DNA from: a virus
Lineage: Duplodnaviria; Heunggongvirae; Uroviricota; Caudoviricetes
Strand: one strand, 5' to 3'
IMG/VR virus record: IMGVR_UViG_3300020576_002769
Coordinates: 1 to 17,984 of that record
DNA: 17,984 nt
The translations under genes were made by a program, and so were the position numbers. Of this stretch, positions 1-17,569 are shown one piece after another (within the stretch, counting starts at the first letter, position 1; the number at the start of each line of letters is the position of its first letter). Below the pieces are notes generated by a model. That model was not told the DNA's origin, ran no database searches, and worked only from the letters and a program-made list of their open reading frames with translations.

Positions 1-773
1 GTCAAACCTATAGTACCACCATTTATTCGTTTTGTTAATTGAGTTACAACATCAGTTGTTGCTCCCTTATCACAAATAAACCATAATTTATTTGACTCGA
101 AAAAGAACGCAGCTGATGCTAATTGATATTTTGTGGCAACTAAATCAGGATTACTAATTAAATCCACACCTAAAAAATCACCCAATTTTTTATAATTCTC
201 TTTACCTGTGGTTTGTAATGCTCCTCTTCCACGAAATTTATAACCTTCTTTTGTTGATTCATCACCATTACCCATTCTTCCACCATAAACCTTTGAGGCA
301 ATCTTTTCAGGTTGTCTAGCATAACTTTCGGCTAAATTACCGGGGAAATATTTTGGAAATATTTTTTTAAGACCATCCGCAGAATAATTCAAATTTTCTT
401 GAAATACCTTAAACCCACCTGATTCGTGGTTGCATTGGGATAAGAAATGTGCTAATCTTAATTGAGTGTTTATTTTGAATTTTTCTGCAACCTCAGGAAT
501 CTGAGCGATAACTGAATCCGGAACGTGTCCTTTTAATTTTTCTAATTTTAATTGACCATCTGTTGGAATTACAACGTCTTCTTTAATAACAGAACCAAAC
601 ATTTTTTTCCAAGTACCGTCACCAACAATTCCATCAGCGGTTAATCCATTTTTGGTTTGCCATTCTTTAACCAATTTTTCTGTACCAGGTCCGAACACAC
701 CATCCGCCGTCGTTCCTAATTTTGTTTGTAGTTTTTTAACATCGTCACCTTTTGACCCTACCTTTAGTATCAT
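1..773 (-). CDS. Endolysin: N-terminal peptidoglycan-binding domain (PG_binding_1) + glycoside hydrolase family 19 domain; 3' end outside window
   Basis: Manual translation from ATG at 773: MILKVGSKGDDVKKLQTKLGTTADGVFGPGTEKLVKEWQTKNGLTADGIVGDGTW (PG-binding), then LAHFLSQCNHESGGF, ENLNYSA, GYKFRGRGALQTTGKENY, VTQLTKRINGG (GH19 motifs). The frame is open to the window edge. Not in the supplied ORF track. Confidence 0.93.
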   Translation of the reverse strand, partial: MILKVGSKGDDVKKLQTKLGTTADGVFGPGTEKLVKEWQTKNGLTADGIVGDGTWKKMFGSVIKEDVVIPTDGQLKLEKLKGHVPDSVIAQIPEVAEKFKINTQLRLAHFLSQCNHESGGFKVFQENLNYSADGLKKIFPKYFPGNLAESYARQPEKIASKVYGGRMGNGDESTKEGYKFRGRGALQTTGKENYKKLGDFLGVDLISNPDLVATKYQLASAAFFFESNKLWFICDKGATTDVVTQLTKRINGGTIGL

Positions 774-839
774 AAAAAAAAATATTTATAAGTTTATCAC
801 CTATAAATATTTCTTACTCTTAATTTATTTACTCGTAAA

Positions 840-1265
840 TTAATTTATACTATCTAAAGTTTGTTTAGTTGAAGTTGAATCGATAGTCTCAACACTTTGA
901 ACATCCGATTTAGTTTTTATTGTTTTTTTCTCTCTACCCCAAAAACTTTTTTTAGTTTCAATAAATACAGTATCAATTCTCACCTTTTGTTTAGATACTT
1001 TTAATTCTCTTGATAATTGTAGTTTTTCAATTTTCAATTTCTCAACAGTGTTGTTTAAATATTTAATTTTAGTTATAACTTTACCTACTTTTTCTTGTGT
1101 AATTGAATCACTTACTCGTTGTACCGTATCACAAACTTTGATATTATTAACACTATTAACCAATACTGAATCTGAACTATTAACTAAATTATCACTCGTT
1201 TTATTACTTTCCTTGGGTGAACAAGAAATCAATAAAACAAACATAATAAGTAATATTTTTTTCAT
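840..1265 (-). CDS. Lipoprotein with coiled-coil segment, putative o-spanin
   Basis: MKK + hydrophobic stretch + lipobox-like LISC (Cys15); heptad segment KIKYLNNTVEKLKIEKLQLSRELK; lies immediately upstream of the endolysin. Spanin role is inferred from architecture and context. Confidence 0.55.
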   Translation of the reverse strand: MKKILLIMFVLLISCSPKESNKTSDNLVNSSDSVLVNSVNNIKVCDTVQRVSDSITQEKVGKVITKIKYLNNTVEKLKIEKLQLSRELKVSKQKVRIDTVFIETKKSFWGREKKTIKTKSDVQSVETIDSTSTKQTLDSIN

Positions 1266-1268
1266 ACT

Positions 1269-1571
1269 TTATTTTATTTTACCTAATTCTTGTAGAACTT
1301 TTATTTTTGATGTTGCCGCGGATAAATCACTATCGGATTTTCTCAACTGAAGTGTTAATTGGTCAACTTTAACCTCTAACAATTCAATTTTTTTATTTTG
1401 ACCCTCTTGAATTTCTTTATTTGATAATTTAATATCAACATAAAGATACCCTATCGCCAATAATACGATGAATAGTAATCCTTTTACCGGGTCTTTTGAA
1501 AATTATTTAAAACTAATTGGTGATTTGATATCACCTACCTCCGAATCAACCGCTGTTTTTCTTCCTGCCAT
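1269..1571 (-). pseudogene. Single-TM coiled-coil protein (i-spanin-like) interrupted by in-frame TAA at 1503-1505
   Basis: ATG at 1571 reads MAGRKTAVDSEVGDIKSPISFK*FSKDPVKGLLFIVLLAIGYLYVDIKLSNKEIQEGQNKKIELLEVKVDQLTLQLRKSDSDL...GKIK in one frame. The ORF track starts inside the TM helix at a TTG (1460). Confidence 0.6.
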
Positions 1572-1651
1572 TTTTGTTTGTTTAAGATTATTAAGATTTA
1601 TTTTACTCTAATAATAAATATTCAAAAATGTTAATTAGAATCAATATTGTT

Positions 1652-1686
1652 AAAATAAAAAAGGTTACTTTTTTAGAGTAACCTTT
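1652..1686 (-). terminator. Intrinsic terminator
   Basis: 10-bp stem AAAGGTTACT/AGTAACCTTT followed on the minus strand by TTTATTTT; overlaps the stop codon of the 58-aa gene. Confidence 0.75.
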
Positions 1687-1841
1687 CTTGTGACTTTTTT
1701 TGTTTTAGGAACCGGTTTTTTATATTTTATTTCAACCTCGTATGGACCAAATGTTGTTTTTGATGTGTCATACTTCCATATAACAGTTTCATCCTCATCT
1801 TCGTAAACCTGTTCCCATTTTCTCCCTAATTCTTTTGCCAT
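1665..1841 (-). CDS. Hypothetical 58-aa protein (missed by ORF track)
   Basis: MAKELGRKWEQVYEDEDETVIWKYDTSKTTFGPYEVEIKYKKPVPKTKKVTRKVTLKK; its ATG overlaps the upstream stop codon (TAATG at 1843-1839). Confidence 0.8.
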   Translation of the reverse strand: MAKELGRKWEQVYEDEDETVIWKYDTSKTTFGPYEVEIKYKKPVPKTKKVTRKVTLKK

Positions 1842-2440
1842 TAGTATCCGTAATAAATTAATAAATCATTTTCCCAATCAAATTTTTTATAGATATATAC
1901 CAATTCAAAAATGGAATATTCATATTTCCAACTTGTAGTTATGTTGTCTTTTTTTTCTAAGTTGTATGGTAATGAATCTTCAAACCATCCGGACACTCCC
2001 CACTCTAAAGCCATACTCCTACAATGTTCAATACATTCCATAGCACCTTTTTTACTTTCAGGAGAATCTAACGATTTAATATCAAATCGTCCATTATCAT
2101 CTAAGAATGATTTTAACATACTAGAATAATACGATTTTACTTTTTGACTATAATGTTTAATAATCAACTCTAAAAATTCCTTACCTACAATGTGAAAATC
2201 GTGGTCACCATTATAATATTCCTGTGTTTCAGTATTTCTGAAAAAAGGTGTGTAATATTTTTCATCATCAAACTCGGTATATTTCCCAAATTCATAAAGT
2301 TCTTCACAAATATCAGTCATACTAACCCATCCATCTTCCGGGTCTTCATCGTGTAGTTTATACAATTCCTCTTTTGATAAATCGGTAATTTTTTCCCATT
2401 CGGTTTTTGATATCTTAGCGATATATGTTCTGTATCCCAT
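1841..2440 (-). CDS. Hypothetical protein
   Basis: Long ORF, probable start MGYRTYIAK at 2440, downstream of a TAnnTTTG element. Confidence 0.85.
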   Translation of the reverse strand: MGYRTYIAKISKTEWEKITDLSKEELYKLHDEDPEDGWVSMTDICEELYEFGKYTEFDDEKYYTPFFRNTETQEYYNGDHDFHIVGKEFLELIIKHYSQKVKSYYSSMLKSFLDDNGRFDIKSLDSPESKKGAMECIEHCRSMALEWGVSGWFEDSLPYNLEKKDNITTSWKYEYSIFELVYIYKKFDWENDLLIYYGY

Positions 2441-2455
2441 ATTTTTTATTTTATA

Positions 2456-2486
2456 CAAAAATAGGTAAAAAAAATAAAACCCTCAA
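2456..2486 (-). promoter_or_regulatory. Bacteroidota-type sigma70 promoter (-33 TTG / -7 TAnnTTTG)
   Basis: Minus-strand TATTTTTG at 2463-2456, with TTG 20 nt upstream (2486-2484). Confidence 0.6.
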
Positions 2487-2497
2487 GTCCGAGGGTT
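2467..2497 (-). terminator. Intrinsic terminator after AsnRS-like gene
   Basis: Stem AACCCTC/GAGGGTT, 6-nt loop, followed by a T-rich tract on the minus strand. Confidence 0.75.
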
Positions 2498-2502
2498 AAA
2501 TT

Positions 2503-3315
2503 TTATTTTTGAATCATCTGATAAGCTCTTGCCATTCTCGTCATTCCAATTCCACCACCAAATCTTGGGAAGAAATCGTGAGACAAAAATTCTTCAAGTT
2601 CTTTTTCAACTCTATCTTTACCGAATAATTCAAATAATTTTTCACAATATTTACCATCCTCAATTGAATAGAACATTTCTCTCATTTTTTCAACATCACA
2701 ACTTCTTTCCGCAGACCCAATAGTTTCTTGACCGAATAATATCACATCAACCTTATTGAATATCTCACCGTTATTGTGTTTCATATTCCAAAATGGATTT
2801 GTTCTTCTTGGGAAATATTGTAAAGATATGTTATGTCCTTTTTCTTCCCACATTCTAGTTTCGTGTTCGTTTTCTAAAATCGGAACTCCACCATATTCCT
2901 CACACACCTCATCATATTTAACTTCCACCGGTGTTCCAAACCCAAGGTATTCAAGTAAATCCTGTTCCAATTTCAACATAGTATTAATATCACCTTTGGA
3001 TTCAAATTCAAACATTGGGAAGATTAATTCGTGACGACCCGGGATTGGGTTTTTCTCTTCTCTATATGAAGTTGATATACAAAACACACCATCCCATTCA
3101 GGATTCTGTAATAACTCATATTCCAACCACATCTGACCGGTTTGTGGTAACGGCCAAATTTCACCACTATACTCAAATGTTTTAACTGAGTGTGGATTTT
3201 CGCAAGCAGCTAAGATTGATAATCTACTTTGTGTAGGGACTTCCTTGAAGTTTCTTTCAAGGAAAAATGTTCTCATTTTTTGTACCAATTCGTGGTAAGT
3301 TTTTGTGTCTCTCAT
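2503..3315 (-). CDS. Class II aaRS catalytic-core-only protein (Asp/Asn/Lys subclass), probable ammonia-dependent asparagine synthetase of the truncated-AsnRS type
   Basis: Motif 1 FFLERNFKEVPTQS, LPQTGQMWLE, motif 2 YREEKNPIPGRHELIFPMFEFE, ETIGSAER, motif 3 RFGGGIGMTRM. 270 aa with no N-terminal anticodon-binding OB fold. Confidence 0.8.
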   Translation of the reverse strand: MRDTKTYHELVQKMRTFFLERNFKEVPTQSRLSILAACENPHSVKTFEYSGEIWPLPQTGQMWLEYELLQNPEWDGVFCISTSYREEKNPIPGRHELIFPMFEFESKGDINTMLKLEQDLLEYLGFGTPVEVKYDEVCEEYGGVPILENEHETRMWEEKGHNISLQYFPRRTNPFWNMKHNNGEIFNKVDVILFGQETIGSAERSCDVEKMREMFYSIEDGKYCEKLFELFGKDRVEKELEEFLSHDFFPRFGGGIGMTRMARAYQMIQK

Positions 3316-3351
3316 AGTTTTATATTTAATTTTAATTGTTTACGTATGGGC

Positions 3352-3382
3352 AAAAAAAATCCCTTCAATAGAGAAGGGATTT
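3352..3382 (-). terminator. Terminator hairpin in the 5' leader of the AsnRS-like gene (attenuator candidate)
   Basis: Perfect 10-bp stem AAATCCCTTC/GAAGGGATTT, loop TCTATT, then a T-tract. Lies between the leader ORF and the ATG at 3315. Confidence 0.85.
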
Positions 3383-3387
3383 ACTTT

Positions 3388-3432
3388 TTAAGTAATATTA
3401 TTGTTTGGCGTGTATAATTCATATCGTTTCAT
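3388..3432 (-). CDS. Putative leader peptide MKRYELYTPNNNIT (14 aa, three tandem Asn codons)
   Basis: ATG AAA CGA TAT GAA TTA TAC ACG CCA AAC AAT AAT ATT ACT TAA. ATG lies 5 nt after a TATTTAT motif; the stop lies 5 nt before the terminator stem. Confidence 0.7.
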   Translation of the reverse strand: MKRYELYTPNNNIT

Positions 3433-3507
3433 TGGTAATAAATATACTATATTAAGATAAAAAATCAAGATGTTTAATAATTTTATTTTTGAGTTATATT
3501 TATTGAT

Positions 3508-3744
3508 ATGAAGAAAGTAATTAAACTAACCGAATCTGATTTAGCTCGTATTGTAAAACGAGTTATTATGGAACAAGACCATTTTAAACCGGACCAATTA
3601 TATAGACGTGAGTCGGCAATTGCAAGAATTAAACGTGGTCCTAAATTTATTCACAAATACGCTAAAACTTTACCTAAATTAAAAAAGGAAGGTTCCGATG
3701 AAGTTTGGACTAAAATACCCCAAGTGGTTTGGCAAAATTGGTAA
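3508..3744 (+). CDS. Hypothetical protein with N-terminal MKKVIKLTESDLARIVKRVIMEQ motif
   Basis: ORF preceded by TATTTAT-TGAT-ATG; the N-terminus resembles a motif recurrent in large-phage proteins. Confidence 0.85.
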   Translation: MKKVIKLTESDLARIVKRVIMEQDHFKPDQLYRRESAIARIKRGPKFIHKYAKTLPKLKKEGSDEVWTKIPQVVWQNW

Positions 3745-3745
3745 T

Positions 3746-4390
3746 ATGAATTTTATTATAACTGAAAGTAAATTAGAAAAAACTATTATCCAATGGTTAA
3801 ATAAAAATTATGGCCATTTAAACTTATTTAAAAGTAAAAAACAATTTCAGTATATTTTTTTTATTAAAGATAAAAATGTGATTATTTTTTATGATACTGA
3901 AACCGAAGTATTATATGTTCCAAACGACCATATTGGTTATGTTTTAAAAGAAATGTTGGGTATTGAAAAATACTATGCCGAGTTATTAATTAATATATGG
4001 GTAACACAGAAATATAACATACACATAAAACAAGTTTCTTTTGGTAATTTCAAAAATTTACCTAAAATTAATGATTATGAACCCATTATAACTGAAGAAC
4101 AATATAAACGAATTGGTAGATACGAAACTTGTCCTACTCAGGTCACTTTTGAAGTTTTTACACGAATAACTGCTCGTTGGAAACAAAGAACAAGATGTGT
4201 TAGTGATGAGTTTTATCAATTAATACAAGAATATCAGGATAATAAATTCGAAAATAAGGCCATTCCGGAACAATTACGGGAATTAATTGAAGAATATTAT
4301 TATGAAACCTACTACCTCAATCCTGATGAATATGATATAAGTTTTATAACCGGAAATAAGATTAGTGTAAAAGTGAAACCCCACCGTTAA
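3746..4390 (+). CDS. Hypothetical protein (start MNFIITES), apparently two IITE-motif genes fused
   Basis: True start is probably the ATG at 3746, right after the upstream TAA. An internal copy of the start sequence sits at 4077 (atgaacccattataactgaa vs atgaattttattataactgaa) and is one base short. Confidence 0.7.
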   Translation: MNFIITESKLEKTIIQWLNKNYGHLNLFKSKKQFQYIFFIKDKNVIIFYDTETEVLYVPNDHIGYVLKEMLGIEKYYAELLINIWVTQKYNIHIKQVSFGNFKNLPKINDYEPIITEEQYKRIGRYETCPTQVTFEVFTRITARWKQRTRCVSDEFYQLIQEYQDNKFENKAIPEQLRELIEEYYYETYYLNPDEYDISFITGNKISVKVKPHR

Positions 4391-4403
4391 GATGGGGTTT
4401 TTT
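4376..4403. terminator. Bidirectional intrinsic terminator between convergent genes
   Basis: AAACCCCA/TGGGGTTT stem with T-tract. Confidence 0.8.
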
Positions 4404-4404
4404 G

Positions 4405-5106
4405 TTATAGAAACTCAACTTCGTTTGTTTCCGGGTTCCAATCGATGGTCATTGGTTTTTGAGTATAGATGTATCTTTCATCCAACACTGAACCGTTAAA
4501 GTGGTGAGTATCTCCTTTTCTAACGTATCCTCGACCAGTATGAATATGACCACAAAGATGTATTTTTGGATTAATTACTTGTAATCTTTCAGCCAATAAC
4601 TCACACCCTAAATTATCATATCTTCTACCATCTACAGTATCCAATATTCCAAATGCTGGTCCGTGAGTAAGTAAGATGTCAGTATCTTCAGGGATTGCTT
4701 CCCATTTACTCATTAATCCCGGTCCGTTTTTAGGTAAATTAAATGCCCAATCGTGAAACCAAGGTTGCCAAGGTGACCCGTAGATTTTCACTTCTCTTTC
4801 ATCACCAACTTTGATTACCAATTCACTATCCTGAAGGTATGTGATTCCGGAATAGAATTCTAAAATCTCTTTTACTTTCTCAACGTTTTCTTGGAATCCC
4901 CAATCGTGGTTTCCGGCAATGAATACCTTGTGAGTGTAACCTTCTATGTTGTTGAACCACTTACAGAACTCTCTGATTTCGTGTTCGTATCCCATAGATG
5001 TTAAATCTCCACTATGTATCAACAAATCACCTCCCGGTAAATCACCGGTTATTTGTTTGTGTTTGTTGTGTGTATCCGACAAAAGCGTCACTCTAATATT
5101 TCCCAT
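4405..5106 (-). CDS. Calcineurin-like metallophosphoesterase (MPPED/239FB-like)
   Basis: Motifs SDTH, HSGD, IAGNHD, LLTHGP, CGHIH. Confidence 0.93.
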   Translation of the reverse strand: MGNIRVTLLSDTHNKHKQITGDLPGGDLLIHSGDLTSMGYEHEIREFCKWFNNIEGYTHKVFIAGNHDWGFQENVEKVKEILEFYSGITYLQDSELVIKVGDEREVKIYGSPWQPWFHDWAFNLPKNGPGLMSKWEAIPEDTDILLTHGPAFGILDTVDGRRYDNLGCELLAERLQVINPKIHLCGHIHTGRGYVRKGDTHHFNGSVLDERYIYTQKPMTIDWNPETNEVEFL

Positions 5107-5109
5107 AAT

Positions 5110-5166
5110 TTATTTATTTTTACAATTTTCAAAATGCCATTGTTTCATAGCGTTCCCACCACCTTC
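5110..5166 (-). pseudogene. Remnant of a homing-endonuclease C-terminus
   Basis: Intergenic frame reads *EGGGNAMKQWHFENCKNK*, resembling the (CxxCGK)xGGxxxMKRWHFxNCK tail of many phage HNH/GIY-YIG endonucleases. Recognised by eye. Confidence 0.55.
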
Positions 5167-5216
5167 TTAATAGTTTGAGAATATTGAAAGTAGGTGGTTT
5201 CGTTAAAAAAGTTCGC

Positions 5217-5852
5217 TCAATCCCACCATTTTTCTATTTCCGACTCCATTATTTTGAATAACAACTTTCTTGCTCTATCGTGATTGATATACCCAATATT
5301 CATTGCAATTATTTGTTTATCATCTTCACGACCATCTCTATCAAAAATACCCTCACCATTCATTACTCTTTTGTAAATTAATGGGTATTTTTTGAAATAA
5401 TCGTCAAAATTTTCTTCTAATAATTTAGATTCCCAAGATGATAATGTTGGTCTATCAGGTACCGGTTCAAACCAATGTTTAGTTTTATGGTAATCTGAAT
5501 ATTCAGACGAATAAAACTCATCTTGAACCAATTTCATCAATTTCACACACAATCTCATTCGTTTAGCATCCAATTGTGCTCGTGTGTGTATGTCTCTACC
5601 ACCGATATATTCAGCTTGAGCCGATAATTTGTGTTTCATTATCTCAAAGATGTAATGACTATCCCAATTTCGGTCTTTCCATATGATTGGGAACCAATAA
5701 ATGAGGTTTTTAACACCTGTTTTAAACATTTTATGATAATACTTACCTTCGTGATTCCACCATAGAGGAATTAATTGTATTTTCCTAACAATCCAAGGTT
5801 TTTTAGCTCTTTCATCCGCCCATTGGTCAAATATGTCTTTTTCCGGTTCCAT
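5217..5852 (-). CDS. Hypothetical protein
   Basis: 211-aa ORF, Trp/aromatic-rich, ends at TGA. Confidence 0.88.
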   Translation of the reverse strand: MEPEKDIFDQWADERAKKPWIVRKIQLIPLWWNHEGKYYHKMFKTGVKNLIYWFPIIWKDRNWDSHYIFEIMKHKLSAQAEYIGGRDIHTRAQLDAKRMRLCVKLMKLVQDEFYSSEYSDYHKTKHWFEPVPDRPTLSSWESKLLEENFDDYFKKYPLIYKRVMNGEGIFDRDGREDDKQIIAMNIGYINHDRARKLLFKIMESEIEKWWD

Positions 5853-5853
5853 T

Positions 5854-6063
5854 TTATAGTATATTAATATTAAGTTGAGGTAAAAAGAATGAAATTATTA
5901 CTGAAAAAAGAAAACAGAACAAAGCTGAGAAATTAAACCCAACTGCCACATTTCTACAATCAATAGAATATCCAAATCTTCTTTCGGCGTGACCACTTCT
6001 AAAATACAAACTAACTAAGAATAAAACCCACCCGATAATCGTTAAAATAACTGAAATTTTCAT
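5854..6063 (-). CDS. Small membrane protein (two TM helices)
   Basis: Two hydrophobic segments flank a short polar loop; TATCTTTG element at 6090-6083 upstream. Confidence 0.75.
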   Translation of the reverse strand: MKISVILTIIGWVLFLVSLYFRSGHAERRFGYSIDCRNVAVGFNFSALFCFLFSVIISFFLPQLNINIL

Positions 6064-6082
6064 AATATATTTAATTTTGGGA

Positions 6083-6090
6083 CAAAGATA
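6083..6090 (-). promoter_or_regulatory. Bacteroidota-type -7 element TATCTTTG
   Basis: Matches TAnnTTTG about 20 nt before the ATG at 6063; no clear -33 element. Confidence 0.5.
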
Positions 6091-6106
6091 ACACTTATTT
6101 TTGAAT

Positions 6107-6147
6107 AAAAAAAGGAATTAGTGAAAAACTAACTCCTTTTTTTTTTT
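6107..6147 (-). terminator. Intrinsic terminator
   Basis: Minus-strand stem GGAGTTAGT/ACTAATTCC (a G-U pair works only on the minus strand) followed by a long T-run. Confidence 0.8.
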
Positions 6148-6226
6148 GGGGAAAGATATGTAGGCACTCAGATGTGAGTGATAGAACTTATAAATATATA
6201 CTAAAATGGAAAAAATTACCTCTAAA

Positions 6227-6452
6227 TCACATCATAGAGTGATTTTTTTCGATTTTTTCGATAATTTCAGTTTTTATACCTATAAAATCATACAAAAATG
6301 TGTTTTTTTGGTCTTCATTTAGTATCCCGTCCCATTTTTTTTATGAAAAAAGACAATATTTTATCAGACATATTAATATGCGATATCGTTTTTGACGATT
6401 TTAAGATTTTTACAACCCATTCATACTCATATTGAACACCAAAAACATCCAT
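6227..6452 (-). pseudogene. Hypothetical ~74-aa protein with a 1-nt frameshift in an A8 run (6335-6342)
   Basis: ATG at 6452 gives MDVFGVQYEYEWVVKILKSSKTISHINMSDKILSFFIKK then an early stop. Removing one A continues WDGILNEDQKNTFLYDFIGIKTEIIEKIEKNHSMM* and fills the gap. Confidence 0.6.
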
Positions 6453-6454
6453 AA

Positions 6455-6685
6455 TTACTTTTTACCCATCATTTTTGTCATTTGATTCAATTGTTTCATC
6501 ATTTCACCCATATCCGGGATTTGACCAAATGGATTTGGCGTTCCCGATTGTCCCATTGGTGACTTTTTTAAATCTAAAAAAGACTTAACAAGGTCTCTTC
6601 CATATTTATCCCACCATTTGTAGATTAATACCATTGTGGTAACTTGGACTAACACAAAAATTGTTAAGATTACATTTAAATACAT
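6455..6685 (-). CDS. Small protein with N-terminal TM helix and Met/Gly-rich tail
   Basis: Hydrophobic residues 3-23; a consensus sigma70 promoter lies immediately upstream. Confidence 0.82.
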   Translation of the reverse strand: MYLNVILTIFVLVQVTTMVLIYKWWDKYGRDLVKSFLDLKKSPMGQSGTPNPFGQIPDMGEMMKQLNQMTKMMGKK

Positions 6686-6700
6686 AATTTTTTTTTCTTA

Positions 6701-6729
6701 ATTATAGATTATCCAATTGGATATGTCAA
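6701..6729 (-). promoter_or_regulatory. Canonical sigma70-type promoter TTGACA-N17-TATAAT with palindromic spacer
   Basis: TTGACA 6729-6724, TATAAT 6706-6701; the spacer contains the perfect palindrome TATCCAATTGGATA (6710-6723). Confidence 0.7.
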
Positions 6730-6753
6730 ATTTTACTCGTATATTTATTAGAT

Positions 6754-7023
6754 ATGAAACGAACTTTTGAATTTTGCTTAAATAACTTTAGTAGAACTGA
6801 AATTAACTCACTTTTTGGTGAAGGTAGTGTTATTGAGGTAAATCATATAAAATATTCAACAAATAATAAAACGTTCAATGTAGATTGTAAATTACTAGCA
6901 ACTGACCCGGAAGAATGTTTGGAAACATATCCCGTAGGTTTAGAATTATTGGTAAGTAATAGTTGGAAATGGATGGGTGTTGATTATAGTATCACATTAA
7001 CCCATTCAATAGACCTTAAATAA
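6754..7023 (+). CDS. Hypothetical protein
   Basis: 89-aa ORF preceded by TATTTAT-TAGAT-ATG. Confidence 0.82.
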   Translation: MKRTFEFCLNNFSRTEINSLFGEGSVIEVNHIKYSTNNKTFNVDCKLLATDPEECLETYPVGLELLVSNSWKWMGVDYSITLTHSIDLK

Positions 7024-7210
7024 ATAAATGTAAGTCAGTTTGAATCATACCATTATTTACAAACTCTTCAAACACGTATTCAACAACCTCGTACATATCT
7101 TTTAATGGGTTGTTTTTTTTAAATTCAACTATTTCATATGAAAATTCATTAAACACCCCTGATTGGTGGGCAAAATAATACATTTCCTCAACGTGTTGTT
7201 CGTTCGACAT
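7016..7210 (-). CDS. Hypothetical protein
   Basis: 64-aa acidic ORF, convergent with a short overlap. Confidence 0.75.
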   Translation of the reverse strand: MSNEQHVEEMYYFAHQSGVFNEFSYEIVEFKKNNPLKDMYEVVEYVFEEFVNNGMIQTDLHLFI

Positions 7211-7283
7211 AAAAATAATAGGGTTTTAATAGGTTAGTTATTAATATAATTATATCGATTTTTGAAAAAAAAATAAATATAAT

Positions 7284-7312
7284 TTGATTCTATAAAATTT
7301 TATGTTTATAAT
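7284..7312 (+). promoter_or_regulatory. Sigma70-type promoter TTGATT-N17-TATAAT
   Basis: -35 at 7284-7289 and -10 at 7307-7312, upstream of the FKBP ATG. Confidence 0.6.
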
Positions 7313-7331
7313 TGATAAAAACATTTAATTT

Positions 7332-7757
7332 ATGAAAAAAGTAGAAACAAACAGTAACGTAAAAGTTAATTACACAGGAAGATTAGAAGATGGAACCGTT
7401 TTTGATACATCGATTGTTGAAGGTCGCGAACCATTAGAAGTACAATTAGGTCAAGGTCAATTAATTGTTGGTTTTGAGAATGGATTAATTGGTATGGGTG
7501 AGGGTGAAACTAAGACAATAGAAATTGAATCTATTGAAGCTTACGGTAACCCTAATCCGGAATTCATTAATGAAATCCCAAAAGCAAACGTTCCCGAGGG
7601 AGTTCAAGTCGGAGAATCATTACAAGGTATGGGACCAATGGGACCTGTTAATGTTAAAGTTATTGCAGTTAATGAAGATAGTGTAACATTAGACGCAAAC
7701 CATCCTTTGGCCGGAAAAAAATTGATTTTTGATTTAGAAGTTGTTGAGATTTCATAA
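7332..7757 (+). CDS. slyD: FKBP-type peptidyl-prolyl cis-trans isomerase (SlyD/SlpA-like, no His-rich tail)
   Basis: VKVNYTGRLEDGTVFDTS, GQGQLIVGFENGLIGM, insert-in-flap domain, VTLDANHPLAGKKLIFDLEVV. Confidence 0.93.
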   Translation: MKKVETNSNVKVNYTGRLEDGTVFDTSIVEGREPLEVQLGQGQLIVGFENGLIGMGEGETKTIEIESIEAYGNPNPEFINEIPKANVPEGVQVGESLQGMGPMGPVNVKVIAVNEDSVTLDANHPLAGKKLIFDLEVVEIS

Positions 7758-7787
7758 AAAAAAAGGACAATAAGTCCTTTTTTTTTT
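7756..7787. terminator. Bidirectional intrinsic terminator
   Basis: A-run, GGAC-AATAA-GTCC, T-run between convergent genes. Confidence 0.8.
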
Positions 7788-8175
7788 ATTTATACATCTT
7801 TTTTTTATCTTTGGGGTATTTCTTTTCATACTTCTTCATTATAGCTCCGGATAACGCATTTGCTTCATTTTCATTTTTACCACCAATATCCGAACCTTTT
7901 GAACGTTTCAAAATGGTTCTTTGATATTCGTGTACCCATTCGTGGGCAAGTGTTCTCAAAATGTCTCTATTCATTCTATTTTTAGATAAAACCAACAATT
8001 CATCCTTTGAATTTCTTTGACCGGTAGTCATATCACCTTCACGTTCACCAACAAATTTAATTGTTACGTCGTGTTTTAAAGGATATAGAGATTGTAAATA
8101 TTTTATAAAATTATTGAAGAACTCATAATTCTCCTTTGGAACTTCAGAATCGATATGTTTAATAGTAACTTTCAT
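7786..8175 (-). CDS. Zincin-like metallopeptidase (HEXXH)
   Basis: LRTLAHEWVH with downstream ENEANA, which supplies a candidate third zinc ligand. Confidence 0.75.
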   Translation of the reverse strand: MKVTIKHIDSEVPKENYEFFNNFIKYLQSLYPLKHDVTIKFVGEREGDMTTGQRNSKDELLVLSKNRMNRDILRTLAHEWVHEYQRTILKRSKGSDIGGKNENEANALSGAIMKKYEKKYPKDKKKMYK

Positions 8176-8218
8176 ATTGATAAATATATCAATGTTTGTT
8201 AGTATTTATATATAAAAG
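8176..8218. promoter_or_regulatory. Divergent TATTTAT-type putative phage promoters
   Basis: Minus-strand TATTTAT at 8186-8180, 4 nt before the ATG at 8175; plus-strand TATTTATATATAAAAG at 8203-8218, before the ATG at 8228. Confidence 0.55.
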
Positions 8219-8227
8219 TATTTTCAA

Positions 8228-8791
8228 ATGTCTAAAAGAATAATAATTAGTGAAGAAGAGAAAAATGATATTAAATCATTATACAACATTAACGAACAAG
8301 GTGCCGGTGATGTCTTAAAAGATTTAATGACTGACCTTATTTTCGGAACCGGTGATGATGACGATAAAACTACCACTACATCAACCGGGAATATTTCATC
8401 CGATGACGAATTTTACAAATCAATCTTGAAATGTATTGGTGCCGAGCCAACAAGAGAGAATTTATTATTTATGTATGCTTGGAGGCAGGCCGAAGGTGGT
8501 AATGCCAAAAACAATCCATTTAATATCACTCAAAAATATCCCGGGGCTTCCGACTATAATAAGGTTGGTGTGAAAAATTATCAAACTGAGGAAGACGGAA
8601 TACAAGCAACTTGTAAAACACTAAAAAATGGTAAGTACGATAGAGTAATCCAAGCCTTTAAAAATAACTCCGGATTATCTGCTTTATCAGACGCGGTTAC
8701 AAGTTCACCTTGGGGTACTAAAAGTTTATTGACTCGAATTACCAATGATTATATTGCGGGAGTAACTCCCAAACCACAATCCATCGCATAA
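8228..8791 (+). CDS. Lysozyme-like (glucosaminidase-type) cell-wall hydrolase with N-terminal MSKRIIISEEEK...INEQ motif
   Basis: AWRQAEGG, NNPFN, GVKNY.TEEDGIQAT..TL, SPWGT; assignment by motif resemblance. Confidence 0.6.
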   Translation: MSKRIIISEEEKNDIKSLYNINEQGAGDVLKDLMTDLIFGTGDDDDKTTTTSTGNISSDDEFYKSILKCIGAEPTRENLLFMYAWRQAEGGNAKNNPFNITQKYPGASDYNKVGVKNYQTEEDGIQATCKTLKNGKYDRVIQAFKNNSGLSALSDAVTSSPWGTKSLLTRITNDYIAGVTPKPQSIA

Positions 8792-8794
8792 AAC

Positions 8795-8822
8795 AAAAAA
8801 CCGACATTACGTCGGTTTTTTT
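8795..8822. terminator. Bidirectional intrinsic terminator
   Basis: AAAAAACCGAC-ATTAC-GTCGGTTTTTT between convergent genes. Confidence 0.85.
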
Positions 8823-9090
8823 ATTTAAAATATTGTTTGTCTTTACCTTCGTATAAGGTTGCTATGTTAATTTTTCCTTCAGTTGCTGCAAATTGGTCTA
8901 AAAAATCAAGTTTAACTTGTTTATTCAGTTCTAATAAATTCATCTTATCCAATTCTGTTGTTGTGAATTGTTCTCCTGTTGTTTCACACAGATAATGGTG
9001 GTGAATCACATCATATGTCTTACCCTTATAATCCATAGTGGATGGTTCCGACACTAATTTCATTTCTCTCCCGGTTAATGGACTTTTCAT
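8821..9090 (-). CDS. MqsA/YgiT-type antitoxin N-terminal domain, stand-alone (no HTH)
   Basis: MKSPLTGREMKL...YLCETTGEQFTTTELD resembles the N-terminus of Bacteroidota MqsA-family antitoxins. Confidence 0.6.
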   Translation of the reverse strand: MKSPLTGREMKLVSEPSTMDYKGKTYDVIHHHYLCETTGEQFTTTELDKMNLLELNKQVKLDFLDQFAATEGKINIATLYEGKDKQYFK

Positions 9091-9091
9091 A

Positions 9092-9397
9092 TTAATTACT
9101 TAAAGGTGCTTTAATTGTTGGGTGTGATTGATAGTTTTCAACAACTATCTCTTTTACTGAGTAGTATGGTAATACATCACCTTCTCTCCATTTGACTTCG
9201 GATTCAATTTTTAATATTGGTAATGGGTAAGGTTCTCTTGTTGTGTGAGGAATTTTATATGAATCATAATATTCACTTAACCCACCACCGAACGGCATTA
9301 ATTCATCAACCACTTTATTATAATGTTCTTCACCCATCGATTGTTTTAACAATTCTTTTCTTTCTTCGTGGGTATATTTTCTTATATTCTGTTCCAT
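9092..9397 (-). CDS. Hypothetical protein
   Basis: 101-aa ORF tightly packed in the operon. Confidence 0.78.
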   Translation of the reverse strand: MEQNIRKYTHEERKELLKQSMGEEHYNKVVDELMPFGGGLSEYYDSYKIPHTTREPYPLPILKIESEVKWREGDVLPYYSVKEIVVENYQSHPTIKAPLSN

Positions 9398-9402
9398 ATT
9401 TT

Positions 9403-10347
9403 TTATTCTTTATATTGGTAATTATTAAATTTATCTGACTTTAATCTACCTTTAATTGTCATAGGGTGGAGGTTAAGTTTTTTACTCGCGTCTTTTAACG
9501 TTCTGTATTCTACTTCATCGATGTAAAATGGTTTATTATGGTTTCTTTTCTTTCCTATTTGTGAAATACTGAATCGTTTTTTTTGTTCATCTTCGGTATA
9601 TATCGTATTTTCATTATTTTTGAATTGATAATTTTTATATTTAGGGTTTTTACTTAAAACTCTCCATCTAATAGTATTAAAATTAATATTTAATTTTTTA
9701 GATGCGTCTTGATAAGACTCGTATTCAATATTATCTATAATAATATTATGTTTATTATTGTGTCGGCAAATTCCTTTGTTAATTTCACTTAAATAATTTA
9801 ATACTTCTTGGGTGTGTTTTTTACCAAAAAAAGGATTTTTATCACCATCAGTTTTATAACATAACCTACAAGTGTCATTTGACGGAGATATTTCTTTACC
9901 ACAACCACAATATTTTTTACTCACACCACCTTTCCAATTTGGGTTATTTTGTCCTGGTCGGGAATAAATTGAATCTATTTCTTCCTTACTCATTTTGGAA
10001 TATCTTAATTTTAAACCTTCACTAATATTTTTCACAATATTATTCCTGTTGGGGTTATTTGAGATGTTATCACCACCTGATGATTTAATACCGATGTTGT
10101 ATTTGGGTTTTAAATCTAAGTATTTTTGTTCTGTTGATAATAAGTTATTTATATCACATTTTTCAACTAAAATAAATTCAAAATTTTCTTCCCCATATTT
10201 ATTCCAAGCTCTTTGTAAAATTGAGTTATGGTGAGAACCTCGTTTTAATTCATAAGTGTGTCTGAACCATCTTTTTTCAATATTAATTGATGACCCATAA
10301 TAACAATCACCATTAATGTTATTCATAATTTTATAAATTCCTGTCAT
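9403..10347 (-). mobile_element. Free-standing GIY-YIG homing endonuclease
   Basis: GIYKI..YYGSS..RWFRH..HHN..LQRAWNKYG..F.F..VE catalytic domain; NPNWKGG; CxC..CxxC zinc knuckle; NUMOD3-like KNPFFGKKHT; two terminal HTH-like repeats (IDNIEYESYQDASKKLN / IDEVEYRTLKDASKKLN). Confidence 0.92.
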
Positions 10348-10409
10348 AATATTCTTTTATATATAAATATCACGATAGGGAGAAAAACTAATATACCTAC
10401 CTAAAAAAA

Positions 10410-11240
10410 TTATATACCTAATTCTAATTTTGAATTTATTTTTGTAATATTATCAGTACCCATAATTAAAAAATCATCAATAGAATAATTATAAAAATTT
10501 TTATTTTCTTTTAATATTAATTTTGGAAAATCGTTTAATGGTTTCTTTTCTAATAATTCATTTGCCGCGTCGTAATGCCTATCGTATATGTGTAAATTTT
10601 GAACGAAATGACAAAATTTACCTACTTTATAATCACAATGACCCGCAACCATTAGTAATAATGAAAAATATTGGGTTTTATTAATTTGATTTGCTACAAT
10701 ATAATCTGATGACCTTTGAATTAAAGTCATATCTAAAAACATAACACCTTTAACTTTTCTAACCGACCAAATTGTTTCGTAAGCACAAGGATGTAATCCT
10801 TTGGTGTCTTTCAAATCTTGATATTGGTATAGATTTATAATATGTCGTCTTGAAAATGGGTCATTTTTTAATCCATCCAATAAATCATTCATTAAATCAT
10901 ATTTCGATACGGTCGCACCATATCTTTGACCTATGGTATCATCACCAACATTCCAATCATCCCACCATAAAATACCCTTTTCTCTTGCGGTAACCAAAGA
11001 ACTATCCTGTGATTGGTAAATCCATAATATCTCTTTAATTCCGGTCTTAATCGCAGTGTTTCGTAGTGTTGTGATTGGGAACTCACCTTTTGAAATATCA
11101 TATTCCTCAAAAACTTGGGTGATGAATTTACTATGTGCGGGTGTTCCATCAACATATTTTGGTCTAGGGTCTTCATCTAAACAACCTTCAGATAATATCT
11201 TCCGGAGATTATCTACATAGTATTTATCAGCCTTATTCAT
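10410..11240 (-). CDS. thyA: Thymidylate synthase
   Basis: Catalytic LHPC, SRRHII, QRSSD, conserved Asn (QINKTQ), HFVQNLHIYDRH; uninterrupted ORF. Confidence 0.96.
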   Translation of the reverse strand: MNKADKYYVDNLRKILSEGCLDEDPRPKYVDGTPAHSKFITQVFEEYDISKGEFPITTLRNTAIKTGIKEILWIYQSQDSSLVTAREKGILWWDDWNVGDDTIGQRYGATVSKYDLMNDLLDGLKNDPFSRRHIINLYQYQDLKDTKGLHPCAYETIWSVRKVKGVMFLDMTLIQRSSDYIVANQINKTQYFSLLLMVAGHCDYKVGKFCHFVQNLHIYDRHYDAANELLEKKPLNDFPKLILKENKNFYNYSIDDFLIMGTDNITKINSKLELGI

Positions 11241-11637
11241 AAATCTCTTGAATTTGTCCGTTATAGTTTATTGTTGTGAGTTTGGTCGGACATAATGGTT
11301 TCATACCAAATATTATATCGGAAGTGGAGTGTTCTACCCAAAAACATTCGTCTGATGATTCACTAAAATAAAAATATCTACCCACTTCGTCTTTTTTCCA
11401 TTTAGTTTTTGATTCAATATTTGTATAAAAATAATTAATAATTTCATCATTACTCAACTCTCTTGTCTCAATTGTAATACCCCACCTTTTAGAGAACTCA
11501 TCACGGGTTCTTATCCAATAAATGAATTCAGGTTGTGATAGATATTTTCCATCTAAAGTTGGTTCGGAAGTTTCTACATAATCCTTATAACATTCACCAA
11601 TAAGGTCTATTTGTTTATCTGTTGTATTCATTTTCAA
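11233..11637 (-). CDS. Hypothetical protein with EF..TxDEF..WG motif
   Basis: 134-aa ORF (start may be the Met at 11631); LSQPEFIYWIRTRDEFSKRWG. Confidence 0.8.
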   Translation of the reverse strand: MKMNTTDKQIDLIGECYKDYVETSEPTLDGKYLSQPEFIYWIRTRDEFSKRWGITIETRELSNDEIINYFYTNIESKTKWKKDEVGRYFYFSESSDECFWVEHSTSDIIFGMKPLCPTKLTTINYNGQIQEIYE

Positions 11638-11791
11638 AAGTATCTACGTAATAATTATCGGTGTTATAACCATATTTTTCTCTGTAATGTTCCGCCTCTT
11701 CTTTAGTTTTGAAAGGAGCCAATATTACATTATGTTCTTTACTTCCGTGTGCCGGTGATTTTTCATACACCGCATAAAGTTTATTCTCCAT
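11615..11791 (-). CDS. Hypothetical protein (start MENKLYAV)
   Basis: ATG at 11791 overlaps the end of the upstream gene. Confidence 0.72.
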   Translation of the reverse strand: MENKLYAVYEKSPAHGSKEHNVILAPFKTKEEAEHYREKYGYNTDNYYVDTFENEYNR

Positions 11792-12287
11792 CCCACTCTT
11801 TTTGTCTTCCTTCATCAACTTTTTTGTCAATATATTCACGAAGTTCTTTCATTGACTTCAGAAAATACAATCTCAACCGGTGAAATTCTTTATCTTTAAT
11901 TTCATCCCAATGACTATAACTCTCAAAACAATAATCAAACCCTTCTTCATCCATTCTATATTGGACGGCCTCCCAAAGTTCCAAATCATCTTCCTCTTCC
12001 AATTCCAAAGAAGACAATCCCAAGAAACTTCTTAATTGTTCTTCAGACGGTCTTGCGTTTTGATGTTCATTCGGAATAGTATAAGTTCTACCATAACTTG
12101 TTGTTAGAGATTTTCCTCCATTCATAATGTAAATCAGACCTTTTGTATTGGTCATCTCAATAATTTCGTGATGGTCATCCACAATTACGTATTCAGACGT
12201 ATCAAGTTTGTATGCTCTGAGTACATCACCCTCAAAATTTAATAATCCTAAATAAGGTTTTCTGTCTTTATTCTCGTACTTCGCCAT
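11781..12287 (-). CDS. Hypothetical acidic protein
   Basis: 168-aa ORF within the operon. Confidence 0.85.
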   Translation of the reverse strand: MAKYENKDRKPYLGLLNFEGDVLRAYKLDTSEYVIVDDHHEIIEMTNTKGLIYIMNGGKSLTTSYGRTYTIPNEHQNARPSEEQLRSFLGLSSLELEEEDDLELWEAVQYRMDEEGFDYCFESYSHWDEIKDKEFHRLRLYFLKSMKELREYIDKKVDEGRQKEWDGE

Positions 12288-12498
12288 TTGCGTATTTTAT
12301 TATAGTTCTGTTTATTTTTCCTATTTTATTGAAACTATCCGCCCATTCTGCGTGGGTCTTTGGTTCACCAAATATATCCAAATATATCTCTTTTGATAAA
12401 GGTAGTAATTTTGAATAATATTTCCAACTATTATAGTCAGGTTTTTCTATAATAGTTTCGATTGGTTGGTTTATGAAGTTTTGTATCTTATTCTCCAT
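12268..12498 (-). CDS. Hypothetical protein
   Basis: 76-aa ORF overlapping both neighbours. Confidence 0.75.
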   Translation of the reverse strand: MENKIQNFINQPIETIIEKPDYNSWKYYSKLLPLSKEIYLDIFGEPKTHAEWADSFNKIGKINRTIIKYANGEVRE

Positions 12499-12799
12499 TC
12501 TTTTTTCTATTAAAAATACTAATTGTGGTTTCGTAAATACATCTATCAGGATTTATTAAAGAAAATTTACCGGAACGAACATTAATTGGAAGTGATAATG
12601 TTTTGGAATACTCTTTTATCCCATAATTTATCCATCCGGAATCTTGATAATCCGGGTCGGTATATAATTGAGTGAATCTAACATTAACGTGAGTATCATC
12701 AATCCATTTTGTATGTGTGTCCCATAATTCCCAACCTAATATTTTTTGTCGTTTCAAATCGGAAATTAATGTTTTTAACTTTTCTTTTTTCTTATCCAT
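12488..12799 (-). CDS. Hypothetical protein (start MDKKKEK)
   Basis: ATG at 12799 overlaps the upstream KENG* end. Confidence 0.75.
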   Translation of the reverse strand: MDKKKEKLKTLISDLKRQKILGWELWDTHTKWIDDTHVNVRFTQLYTDPDYQDSGWINYGIKEYSKTLSLPINVRSGKFSLINPDRCIYETTISIFNRKKNGE

Positions 12800-13292
12800 T
12801 TTCTTTTTCATATTTAACAAAAAATTGACACATCGTTGAATGTACTAACCCATCAAATTTAACCTCACACATATACGAAGAACCTCTCCCAAACGCGTGT
12901 AAGTCAGACCAACATTTGGTAACAACACCTTTTTTACCACGATAATCTTTGAAAGGTCTTAAATCAAGAAATGTATCTTCTAAAAACTCACCAACAGAAT
13001 CAAAATAACTATCCGGTAAATCGGGTGCAAACATAACCTCTTCACCCTCTCCAAAATAATAATCCCATTCTCTTTCTTCCATCGGGGTTTTTGGGTTTGG
13101 TAATAATTGAGTATCATCCTCAAAACATCTACCATTTGGCCATCTAACATCGTACTGACCTTCATCTAGTTCAAATGGGGGTTCAACAATTACACCATCA
13201 CCAATACCTCTACCCCAACCATCAAAATCGTTGGGTATCCATCCTTCAGGATTTTTTATAACCCTATCACCGATATTAAATTTTTTATCCAT
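12792..13292 (-). CDS. Hypothetical protein (start MDKKFNIGDRV), possibly two small beta-barrel (SH3/KOW-like) modules
   Basis: ATG at 13292 overlaps the upstream EANG* end. FNIGDRV..G.V..YDVRW and FGEGEEV..GVV..EVKF patterns. The ORF track's 13436 start is an over-extension. Confidence 0.75.
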   Translation of the reverse strand: MDKKFNIGDRVIKNPEGWIPNDFDGWGRGIGDGVIVEPPFELDEGQYDVRWPNGRCFEDDTQLLPNPKTPMEEREWDYYFGEGEEVMFAPDLPDSYFDSVGEFLEDTFLDLRPFKDYRGKKGVVTKCWSDLHAFGRGSSYMCEVKFDGLVHSTMCQFFVKYEKENG

Positions 13293-13476
13293 TTGCTTCT
13301 TCATAAATTTTATAATCAAAATACCAAGGACTTGGTTCATTCTCGTTTTCGTTTTTAACAATTTCTTCGGCAGCAGCCTTGGCATCCTCGTAGCTATAAT
13401 ACGATTCCAAAAATTGACGAGAATCCACATCAACAAATGGTTCCCGGTGACTATTTCTCCAAACTATGATATACAT
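13285..13476 (-). CDS. Hypothetical protein
   Basis: 63-aa ORF coupled to its neighbours. Confidence 0.78.
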   Translation of the reverse strand: MYIIVWRNSHREPFVDVDSRQFLESYYSYEDAKAAAEEIVKNENENEPSPWYFDYKIYEEANG

Positions 13477-13700
13477 TTTTCAATATTTTTGTTTTCTAAA
13501 TTATTCCAATTTTGATTAAACTCATCATCGGTTAATAATTTATTACTAAATTCCCCTTCAACCAACAAATCATTCTTATCCAAATATAAATTGGGGTATT
13601 TACCATATGGTGAATTTTTAACCTTAGAATTATGCGAATCAAATAATCTACCACATTTCTCTAAATAATTCTTGTGTAATTTTTCTATACTATACAACAT
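13464..13700 (-). CDS. Hypothetical protein with EF..TDDEF..W motif
   Basis: EGEFSNKLLTDDEFNQNW; TAATG coupling. Confidence 0.75.
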   Translation of the reverse strand: MLYSIEKLHKNYLEKCGRLFDSHNSKVKNSPYGKYPNLYLDKNDLLVEGEFSNKLLTDDEFNQNWNNLENKNIEKCIS

Positions 13701-14616: not shown

Positions 14617-14617
14617 T

Positions 14618-15682: not shown

Positions 15683-15687
15683 AATTG

Positions 15688-16279: not shown

Positions 16280-16283
16280 CCGA

Positions 16284-16346: not shown

Positions 16347-16381
16347 TACCAACAAAAAAAAGTAACCTAAATTTTTAAAAA

Positions 16382-16827: not shown

Positions 16828-16828
16828 T

Positions 16829-17566: not shown

Positions 17567-17569
17567 ATG

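Follow-up and report, generated by a model that had tools for sequence, protein, structure and literature searches.

Candidate Ribosome-Controlled Attenuator with Asparagine Codons Ahead of an AsnRS-Like Gene in Uncultured Phages

Introduction

In a 17,984-nucleotide (nt) stretch of viral DNA (IMG/VR record IMGVR_UViG_3300020576_002769, positions 1 to 17,984; Caudoviricetes), a short reading frame with three consecutive Asn codons and an intrinsic terminator precede a gene resembling asparaginyl-tRNA synthetase (AsnRS). The question raised by this locus is whether translation of the short frame decides if the AsnRS-like gene is transcribed and, if so, what is being sensed. The whole stretch, referred to here as the window, was analyzed together with related loci. 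The leader is most likely a virus-borne sensor of asparagine supply, carried by a large group of uncultured phages with Bacteroidota-type hosts and simpler than the textbook bacterial sensors. As to mechanism, a two-state ribosome-mediated transcription attenuator that reads the speed of Asn-codon decoding without an antiterminator helix is put forward tentatively, at somewhat less than an even chance. The evidence is comparative. It is strong for conservation and for codon bias, and the function is predicted from sequence.

Results

Leader and Terminator

The leader is read from the minus strand and lies in the divergent intergenic region (3316–3507) between the AsnRS-like gene (minus strand, 3315–2503) and a plus-strand open reading frame (ORF) starting at 3508. 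A phage-type promoter box, TATATTTATT (3446–3437), which includes a TATTTAT motif (3444–3438), is located 6 nt 5′ of the ATG (3432–3430) of the short upstream frame. The frame, MKRYELYTPNNNIT, has 14 codons and ends with TAA at 3390–3388, so that it occupies 3432–3388 with the stop codon included. The TAA is found 5 nt 5′ of the first stem base (3382) of an intrinsic-terminator hairpin (3382–3357) with a perfect 10-bp stem, AAATCCCTTC/GAAGGGATTT, and a 6-nt loop, TCTATT. Folding of the hairpin gives −12.6 kcal/mol. A T8 tract (3359–3352) comes next, with its first three T paired within the stem, and directly thereafter GCCC (3351–3348), which is conserved among relatives. An A-rich spacer of 32 nt (3347–3316) separates the terminator from the ATG of the AsnRS-like gene, and a closing terminator (2497–2478) lies downstream of the gene. 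The Asn codons AAC, AAT, and AAT (3405–3397) start 24, 21, and 18 nt 5′ of the AATCC of the stem at 3381, which is used as the zero point for all hairpin-relative positions given below. The positions given in the initial annotation for the box motif, the short frame, its Asn codons, and the terminator were found to be correct on a minus-strand reading.

The 151-nt leader folds with an energy of −20.9 kcal/mol, compared with −12.3 ± 2.8 kcal/mol in shuffled sequences (z = −3.1). A small hairpin across the stop codon, previously regarded as a competitor of the terminator, coexists with it in the minimum-energy fold, and this helix is kept only within the leader family of the window itself.

More than 599 relatives of the AsnRS-like gene are present in IMG/VR. 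Three scans provided 236 loci with at least 200 nt of upstream sequence, which represent 109 distinct upstream sequences. With a terminator defined as a perfect hairpin followed by at least six T within 100 nt of the ATG, a hairpin and T-tract were detected in 86 of the 109 distinct upstream regions, compared with 1.7% of shuffled sequences. Among the 86 terminators, 38 distinct stems can be told apart, often with AATCC/GGATT in the lower part and with covariation in the upper part. Energies of −10 to −15 kcal/mol were obtained for the terminator hairpins of 48 folded leaders. These features suggest that the hairpin terminates transcription. After the T-tract, GCCC appears in 45 and ACCC in 7 of the 86 terminator-bearing regions. 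The GCCC is kept regardless of the stem sequence and is missing from the other terminators of the window. It may enhance polymerase pausing, and the conserved G after the U-tract, together with a G ten bases upstream, presumably resembles the consensus elemental pause. The gap from the end of the hairpin to the ATG is just 16–28 nt and featureless in several relatives (L009, L022, and L048). There is no room for a promoter in such a gap, and transcripts of the gene must therefore cross the terminator.

Promoter Box and Start of the Message

The sequence TATATTTAT occurs six times in the window. Copies are located 5–6 nt 5′ of the ATGs of ORFs of 78, 89, and 129 residues, at 3508, 6754, and 8175, respectively, so that the plus-strand ORF at 3508 is preceded by a second copy of the box. 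The pattern TATTTA-N4–7-ATG is found ahead of 23 ORFs of at least 50 residues in the 115-kb contig. Since these 23 long ORFs share the same arrangement of box, spacer, and ATG, the short frame is in a gene-like start context. The spacer between box and ATG is 6–7 nt in 32 of 47 distinct leaders and 16–22 nt in one clade. In Flavobacterium, the sigma-A −7 box is located at −12 to −5 (PMC9723704), and with this geometry the message would be expected to start 0–3 nt 5′ of the AUG. The message of the short frame is thus probably leaderless or nearly so.

A further copy of the TATATTTAT box is present on the minus strand at 6198–6190 with no ATG after it. On its 3′ side lie, in order, a small helix formed by CACTCA and TGAGTG, a run of A11, and a hairpin of terminator type with a T-tract (approximately 6136–6105), the last about 40 nt upstream of a gene starting at 6063. 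A small RNA of roughly 75 nt, or a further leader, may be encoded here.

Short Frames in Related Loci

Approximately 47 distinct short frames of 8–43 codons (median, 14) follow the box in related loci. The stop codon falls between −14 and +15 of the hairpin start in 43 of the 47 leaders, and the remaining four frames run through the hairpin. The encoded peptides constitute some 20 families with little or no mutual similarity; several of the families share a KLRN or RNYEN core, and no common end or motif was found except the richness in Asn. The nearest relatives of the window encode MKRYELYTPNNYIT, in which Tyr replaces the third Asn. The three tandem Asn codons that drew attention to this frame are therefore present in the window, but the NNN run is not conserved and reads NNY in the seven closest leaders.

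Variation within the frame carries a coding signature. In seven alignable families, 17 of 51 variable codon columns in frame are synonymous only, compared with 13 of 93 in the other frames (odds ratio, 3.1; p = 0.0095). The switches observed include AAT/AAC, CGA/AGA, TTA/CTA/CTG, TAT/TAC, and CCA/CCG. This contrast suggests that the short frame may be translated. A short Asn-rich upstream frame with a terminator is thus conserved ahead of the gene across many phage lineages with synonymous changes, which is the pattern that the initial annotation had proposed to look for.

Leaders L046, L050, and L193 contain longer frames of 25–26 codons and an internal helix just 5′ of the terminator. Compensating changes are seen in this helix (AAAGGT/ACCTTT versus AACGGT/ACCGTT). 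The terminator stem begins on a second pair of Asn codons, and the loop holds the stop codon. This leader looks like a more elaborate version of the same device.

Enrichment of Asn Codons

One 14-codon frame with three Asn codons in DNA of 30% GC is unremarkable alone, and the caution expressed in the initial annotation about Asn in AT-rich DNA was fair. The weight beyond chance comes from the comparison of related loci, that is, from the hairpin frequency given above and from the enrichment of Asn relative to shuffles. For the latter, one representative was taken from each of 23 families, Asn-poor families included, and the first ATG 3′ of the box defined the frame, so that its choice did not depend on Asn content. 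Asn accounts for 67 of 300 codons (22%) in frame and for 25 of 293 (8.5%) and 12 of 293 (4.1%) in the other two frames. No such frame preference is found for Lys or Ile. In dinucleotide-preserving, stop-free shuffles the Asn count is 38.4 ± 5.4 (z = 5.2), and 67 was reached in none of 2000 shuffles. The suspected enrichment is therefore specific to the reading frame. The dipeptide NN is present in 10 of the 23 families, compared with 3.8 ± 1.7 in shuffles, and an earlier version of the test with 17 families gave the same answer. For comparison, the real genes that begin with a box and ATG (n = 23) contain 9.9% Asn in the first 14 codons and 7.2% in the whole proteins.

The Asn codons are also placed nonuniformly with respect to the hairpin. 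Asn accounts for 30% of the codons at −36 to −13, 9.9% further upstream, and 14% at −12 to +5 (Fisher p = 1.5 × 10⁻⁴). No enrichment was found at −12 to −7 from the hairpin, and in every case the Asn cluster and the stop codon have two to five non-Asn codons between them. The frame specificity and the placement of the Asn codons suggest that Asn decoding is the signal.

Sensing of NAY codons through a queuosine-type modification was considered separately and ruled out, as Tyr is not enriched in frame.

Specificity and Cassette Structure

The full module was searched for on both strands as a box, an ATG frame of 5–34 codons, and a terminator at the stop codon. The search space of about 650 kb included 80 loci with 3-kb flanks and the whole 115-kb contig. 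Every match to this combination directly precedes an AsnRS-like gene. No partner genes are conserved around the cassette, and the best neighboring family is found in 17 of 81 loci. Since the neighbors are not conserved, the promoter, short frame, terminator, gene, and closing terminator appear to travel as one cassette. No tRNA genes were found in the 115-kb contig.

Two strain variants were seen in wastewater runs. In runs X7 and X11, the dominant strain (depth of about 40) parts from the sequence of the window precisely at 3433, the base immediately 5′ of the short frame's ATG, and continues as a stretch that resembles 1943–1966 (21 of 24 bases), so that the cassette is missing at that place. 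A contig of runs X17 and X18 lacks 330 nt of the plus-strand ORF at 3698–4390, passing from 3754 to 4085.

Downstream of the closing terminator, the next gene on the minus strand probably starts with ATG at 2437 and not with TTG at 2458 (2437–2465). The sequence TATTTTTG, which precedes ATG 2437 and follows the closing terminator, matches the host-type TAnnTTTG −7 box. A host-type promoter and a phage-type box therefore alternate within 1 kb.

Relatives without the Short Frame

Distant homologues used as queries (P0002, P0009, and P0051) provided few loci, all of them without the leader and with the gene in tight operons. On jumbo-phage contigs of 150–460 kb (L013, L014, L043, L045, L051, L065, and L070), a different conserved leader is found within 140 nt upstream of the gene. 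Its elements are, in order, a GATATATAC-like box, a hairpin that varies, and A10-TTTC-N1–2-ATG. The hairpin is followed by A and not by T, and it is thus not a terminator on the strand of the gene.

Cellular relatives of the enzyme (L244–L323), with 55–62% identity, occur in metagenome-assembled genomes, often of organisms with reduced genomes. The organisms include Saccharibacteria and other members of the candidate phyla radiation (CPR), DPANN archaea (Woese- and Pacearchaeota), Coxiellaceae, chlamydiae, Dependentiae, and Weeksellaceae, and some of the contigs are 0.7–2.6 Mb in length. A hairpin and T-tract are present upstream in 34 of 78 of these loci, with no Asn-rich frame. Several Saccharibacteria loci contain a hairpin, T7/8, and GCC(C), often with a second hairpin that begins at the GCCC. 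The Coxiellaceae loci share the upstream palindrome TTTGCGCGCAAA, and the Weeksellaceae copies carry an N-terminal extension.

AsnRS-Like Enzyme

The regulated gene encodes a stand-alone class II synthetase core. The 270-residue protein matches Pfam family PF00152 (E = 6 × 10⁻¹²) and phrog_29758 in PHROG, the function of which is not annotated; PF03590 was not matched. Database names for the family are generic only ("tRNA ligase-related"). An AlphaFold (AF2) model was obtained with a pLDDT of 97.6. In Foldseek searches with this model, the top match and most of the best matches in the PDB, as well as the top 19 matches in Swiss-Prot, are catalytic domains of AsnRS. A profile of 56 relatives compared against the PDB also returned AsnRS first (E = 1 × 10⁻¹⁵), followed by archaeal-type AspRS and, with an E-value of only 1 × 10⁻⁶, the archaeal asparagine synthetase A (AS-AR). 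The initial assignment as an Asp/Asn-tRNA synthetase core is thus upheld, with AsnRS catalytic domains as the closest folds.

The arginines of motifs 2 and 3 are kept, with R204, R251, and R260 conserved in at least 90% of the family. The motifs ETIGSAER and QTGQMWLE align to AsnRS. The pocket motif QTGQMWLE resembles QSSQLYLE of AsnRS, and its counterpart in AspRS is QSPQLYKQ. The Lys in the pocket of AspRS binds the side chain of Asp. At this place the phage family has L64 (conserved in at least 90%), which indicates a pocket of the AsnRS type. Motifs 2 and 3, the fold, and the Asx-type pocket identify the protein as a catalytic core of class II, subclass IIb (Asp/Asn/Lys). It aligns only to residues ∼130–410 of AsnRS and contains no anticodon-binding domain, and the N-terminal OB anticodon-binding domain expected of a functional AsnRS is therefore absent. 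Given the AsnRS-like fold, the pairing of the codons with the enzyme is cognate.

The AS-AR structures (3P8T and 3REU) represent a paralog of AsnRS that is likewise a stand-alone core of similar size without an anticodon-binding domain. The fold is compatible with the model of the phage enzyme, with TM-scores by target of 0.67–0.71. The phage family differs in being nearer to true AsnRS, by the E-values given above, and looks like a truncation separate from AS-AR. Candidate reactions for the phage enzyme are the synthesis of Asn, as catalyzed by the archaeal paralog, or the activation of Asn for another acceptor.

Discussion

Proposed Mechanism

One terminator is present, no competing helix was found, and the frame ends at the foot of the hairpin, which leaves the position of the ribosome as the only available variable. 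No leader contains an alternative helix that takes up the 5′ arm of the terminator, and in this respect the initial description of the leader as an attenuator of the classic trp, his, and thr type did not hold. In the 48 folded leaders, the best structure of the RNA before the 3′ arm averages −2.3 kcal/mol, and the 5′ arm is unpaired in most of the leaders, so that there is no antiterminator. The leaders average −1.6 kcal/mol and are essentially unstructured; an internal helix is found only in L046, L050, and L193.

In the mechanism proposed, transcription from the phage-type promoter would begin on the AUG of the short frame or only a few bases away from it. The AsnRS-like gene would have no promoter of its own below the terminator and would be made only upon readthrough by the polymerase. 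The position of the first ribosome when the polymerase reaches U8–GCCC would decide whether the hairpin acts. With Asn-tRNA(Asn) scarce, the ribosome would be parked on the hungry Asn codons, no more than about 27 nt from the hairpin; the hairpin would be hindered and the gene transcribed. With Asn-tRNA plentiful, the ribosome would finish the frame and be released at the stop codon, the hairpin would fold, and transcription would end.

The distances in this scheme have a precedent in Escherichia coli, where termination at tR2 fell from ∼90% to <10% when the distance between a stop codon and this downstream terminator was shortened from 28 to 5 bp, and removal of translation restored it (PMC4824070). 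The fitted range over which a ribosome represses the terminator is 27 nt, and constructs at 17–18 bp differ widely (PMC4824070). Attenuation by a leader peptide has been reported in Flavobacterium (PMC9723704). The Asn codons of the phage leaders are located 10–33 nt from the stem, essentially inside the 27-nt range, and are sparser beyond it. All cognate-codon leader peptides known to us, including pheM before pheST, switch the gene on under shortage. The placement of the Asn codons within range and this rule for cognate leaders favor the classical direction, in which the gene is on under shortage, and this direction is judged modestly more probable than its inverse.

Alternative Explanations

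The same device could operate in the inverted sense, as a licence based on coupling of the kind found in pyrBI. A ribosome that keeps pace would mask the 5′ arm at the stop codon and permit readthrough, and a ribosome held up at Asn codons 13–36 nt upstream would let the hairpin fold and keep the gene off. Production of the enzyme would then require plentiful Asn-tRNA, which suits a consumer of asparagine rather than a supplier, and the AsnRS-like pocket motif is consistent with Asn as a substrate. The stop codons at −14 to +15 are located where a terminating ribosome covers the stem, and the four frames that run through the hairpin resemble the pyrBI leader. The two to five non-Asn codons before the stop, the lack of Asn enrichment at −12 to −7, and the missing antiterminator agree with this direction, as does the near abolition of tR2 termination by a stop codon at 5 bp and its return upon uncoupling (PMC4824070). 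The ribosome would be uncoupled by a delay at any point of the frame, yet Asn codons keep to its final 36 nt, and the E. coli model still has the terminator repressed by a ribosome that is within 27 nt. The conserved pause-like G after the U-tract would presumably oppose readthrough. The inverse direction also departs from the rule that every cognate-codon leader peptide known to us acts under shortage, and it is regarded as a doubtful alternative. In a different explanation, the frame senses nothing: the terminator is constitutively leaky and sets a fixed low level of enzyme or provides insulation, and the ATG is kept by the promoter class. Open short frames are common at 30% GC, and 13–57% of frame shuffles stay open. 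In L016, L023, L035, L061, and L099 a normal upstream gene ends 6–13 nt before the same hairpin-T8-GCCC, which can thus be an ordinary gene end too. Some leaders are poor in Asn, and the cellular relatives often have a hairpin and T-tract with no Asn-rich frame. What a leaky terminator leaves unexplained is the frame-specific excess of Asn (z = 5.2) and its position relative to the hairpin, the synonymous-change signature, and the restriction of the module to the AsnRS-like gene, and this explanation is considered unlikely.

Two further explanations assign the control or the product elsewhere. The hairpin and U8 could affect the stability, processing, or translation of a full-length message and be modulated by ribosomes on the short frame. 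The A-rich start of the gene could pair with U8, the GCCC is conserved as sequence and not as a stem partner, which suggests a factor or processing site, and the jumbo-phage subgroup has a 5′ hairpin followed by A10 with no terminator. A GC-rich stem with 7–9 U is nevertheless a canonical intrinsic terminator, kept here through 38 stem variants, and nothing tested points specifically to a role in processing or translation; such post-transcriptional control is improbable. The short frame could also be the product itself, an Asn/Lys-rich micropeptide on which the enzyme may act, by analogy with the microcin C operon. In mccA-mccB as well, a tiny ORF is followed by an intrinsic terminator and by the gene of an adenylating enzyme (PMC4231749). 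The peptides, however, differ in length (8–43 residues) and share neither an end nor a motif apart from their Asn content, the enzyme is a class II synthetase core and not of the MccB/ThiF type, and the neighborhood holds no conserved partner gene, whether for export, immunity, or another role. The enzyme is retained in many phages and cells that lack the peptide, and no upstream sequence interferes with the hairpin as it does in mcc. A micropeptide product is therefore the least probable of the explanations considered.

Several observations weigh against an Asn-sensing attenuator that is switched on under shortage. The short frame is missing ahead of the gene in the cellular relatives and in many phages, including the jumbo-phage and cyanophage-like clades. 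Some leaders contain little Asn (MITKKKFTK and MSKNLQHI), and the four run-through frames have few Asn codons before the hairpin. Asn columns are invariant in 21 of 26 cases, compared with 58 of 87 for other columns, which is only a trend (p = 0.23). Owing to shared ancestry, as seen in the KLRN/RNYEN core, the number of independent trials is below the 23 families counted. For the mechanism to work, a ribosome would have to load on a leaderless AUG and catch the polymerase within 60–90 nt, and no pause hairpin is visible in most of the 48 folded leaders. With a footprint of ∼12 nt beyond the A site, a ribosome at −30 to −13 misses the stem and a ribosome at the stop codon covers it, which favors the inverse direction. 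Six RNA-labeled wastewater runs hold the stretch as assembled contigs, which are uninformative on the starts, ends, and levels of transcripts.

Implications

If the Asn-sensing attenuator is correct, phages would keep track of how well supplied the infected cell is with one charged tRNA and adjust an auxiliary gene to it. Such monitoring has been described for bacteria, and no description for viruses was found in the literature searched. The enzyme family, which is also present in CPR bacteria, DPANN archaea, and intracellular bacteria, would be flagged as linked to asparagine supply, and the leader would provide a functional lead by tying this widespread, mainly viral orphan family to asparagine. 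With a frame of 9–26 codons behind a leaderless AUG and a single hairpin that has no competitor, the locus would be a minimal natural case of intrinsic termination controlled by ribosome position alone, for which the examples so far are mainly engineered constructs. As a compact part, it is a possible regulatory element for Bacteroidota, where few are known.

Comparison with Known Systems

No Asn leader peptide and no phage-borne leader-peptide attenuator was described in the literature searched, which is not proof of absence. There is an even chance that this leader is the first viral amino-acid-sensing leader-peptide attenuator, the first for asparagine, and the simplest in design, in a self-contained cassette with an orphan enzyme. 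No Rfam family near threshold was obtained for the leader; the weak matches ride on the hairpin, with Phe_leader at 23 bits compared with the 55 bits needed. An Rfam search of 20 cellular loci returned no T-box or other family. T-box riboswitches also sense one charged tRNA and act via a terminator before a synthetase-type gene. The phage leader differs in having no specifier stem or T-box sequence and in being unstructured and only 50–90 nt in length.

The mccA-terminator-mccB operon (Zukher et al. 2014, PMC4231749) likewise combines a tiny ORF, an intrinsic terminator under the control of a ribosome, and a gene for an adenylate-forming enzyme. In that system upstream RNA weakens the terminator and the ribosome restores it, the peptide is a substrate with a fixed C-terminal Asn, and the terminator after mccA keeps the peptide message in excess over the enzyme message (PMC4231749). 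The phage peptides are unconserved, the enzyme belongs to PF00152, and no partner genes are present, and the phage system is thus not of the microcin C type.

In logic, the nearest system is pheM-pheST, which together with the trp, his, thr, leu, and ilv leaders combines a short frame of cognate codons, a terminator, and a cognate gene; in pheM-pheST the regulated gene also encodes a class II tRNA synthetase. The phage leader has a leader ORF in a translatable context, as judged from its sequence, as well as the cognate codons and the terminator. It lacks the antiterminator and the 1:2 pause helix of the classical attenuators and would start leaderless or nearly so from a phage promoter. The amino acid is Asn, the carrier is viral, and the regulated protein is only a synthetase core. 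In structure, the nearest systems are pyrBI and pyrE, together with the effect of stop-codon distance on tR2 (Li et al. 2016, PMC4824070). The two-state logic is shared, an antiterminator is missing in both cases, and both leader frames stop at the terminator or extend into it. The pyrBI leader reads UTP through pausing of the polymerase, whereas the frame-specific signal of the phage leader is the Asn codons.

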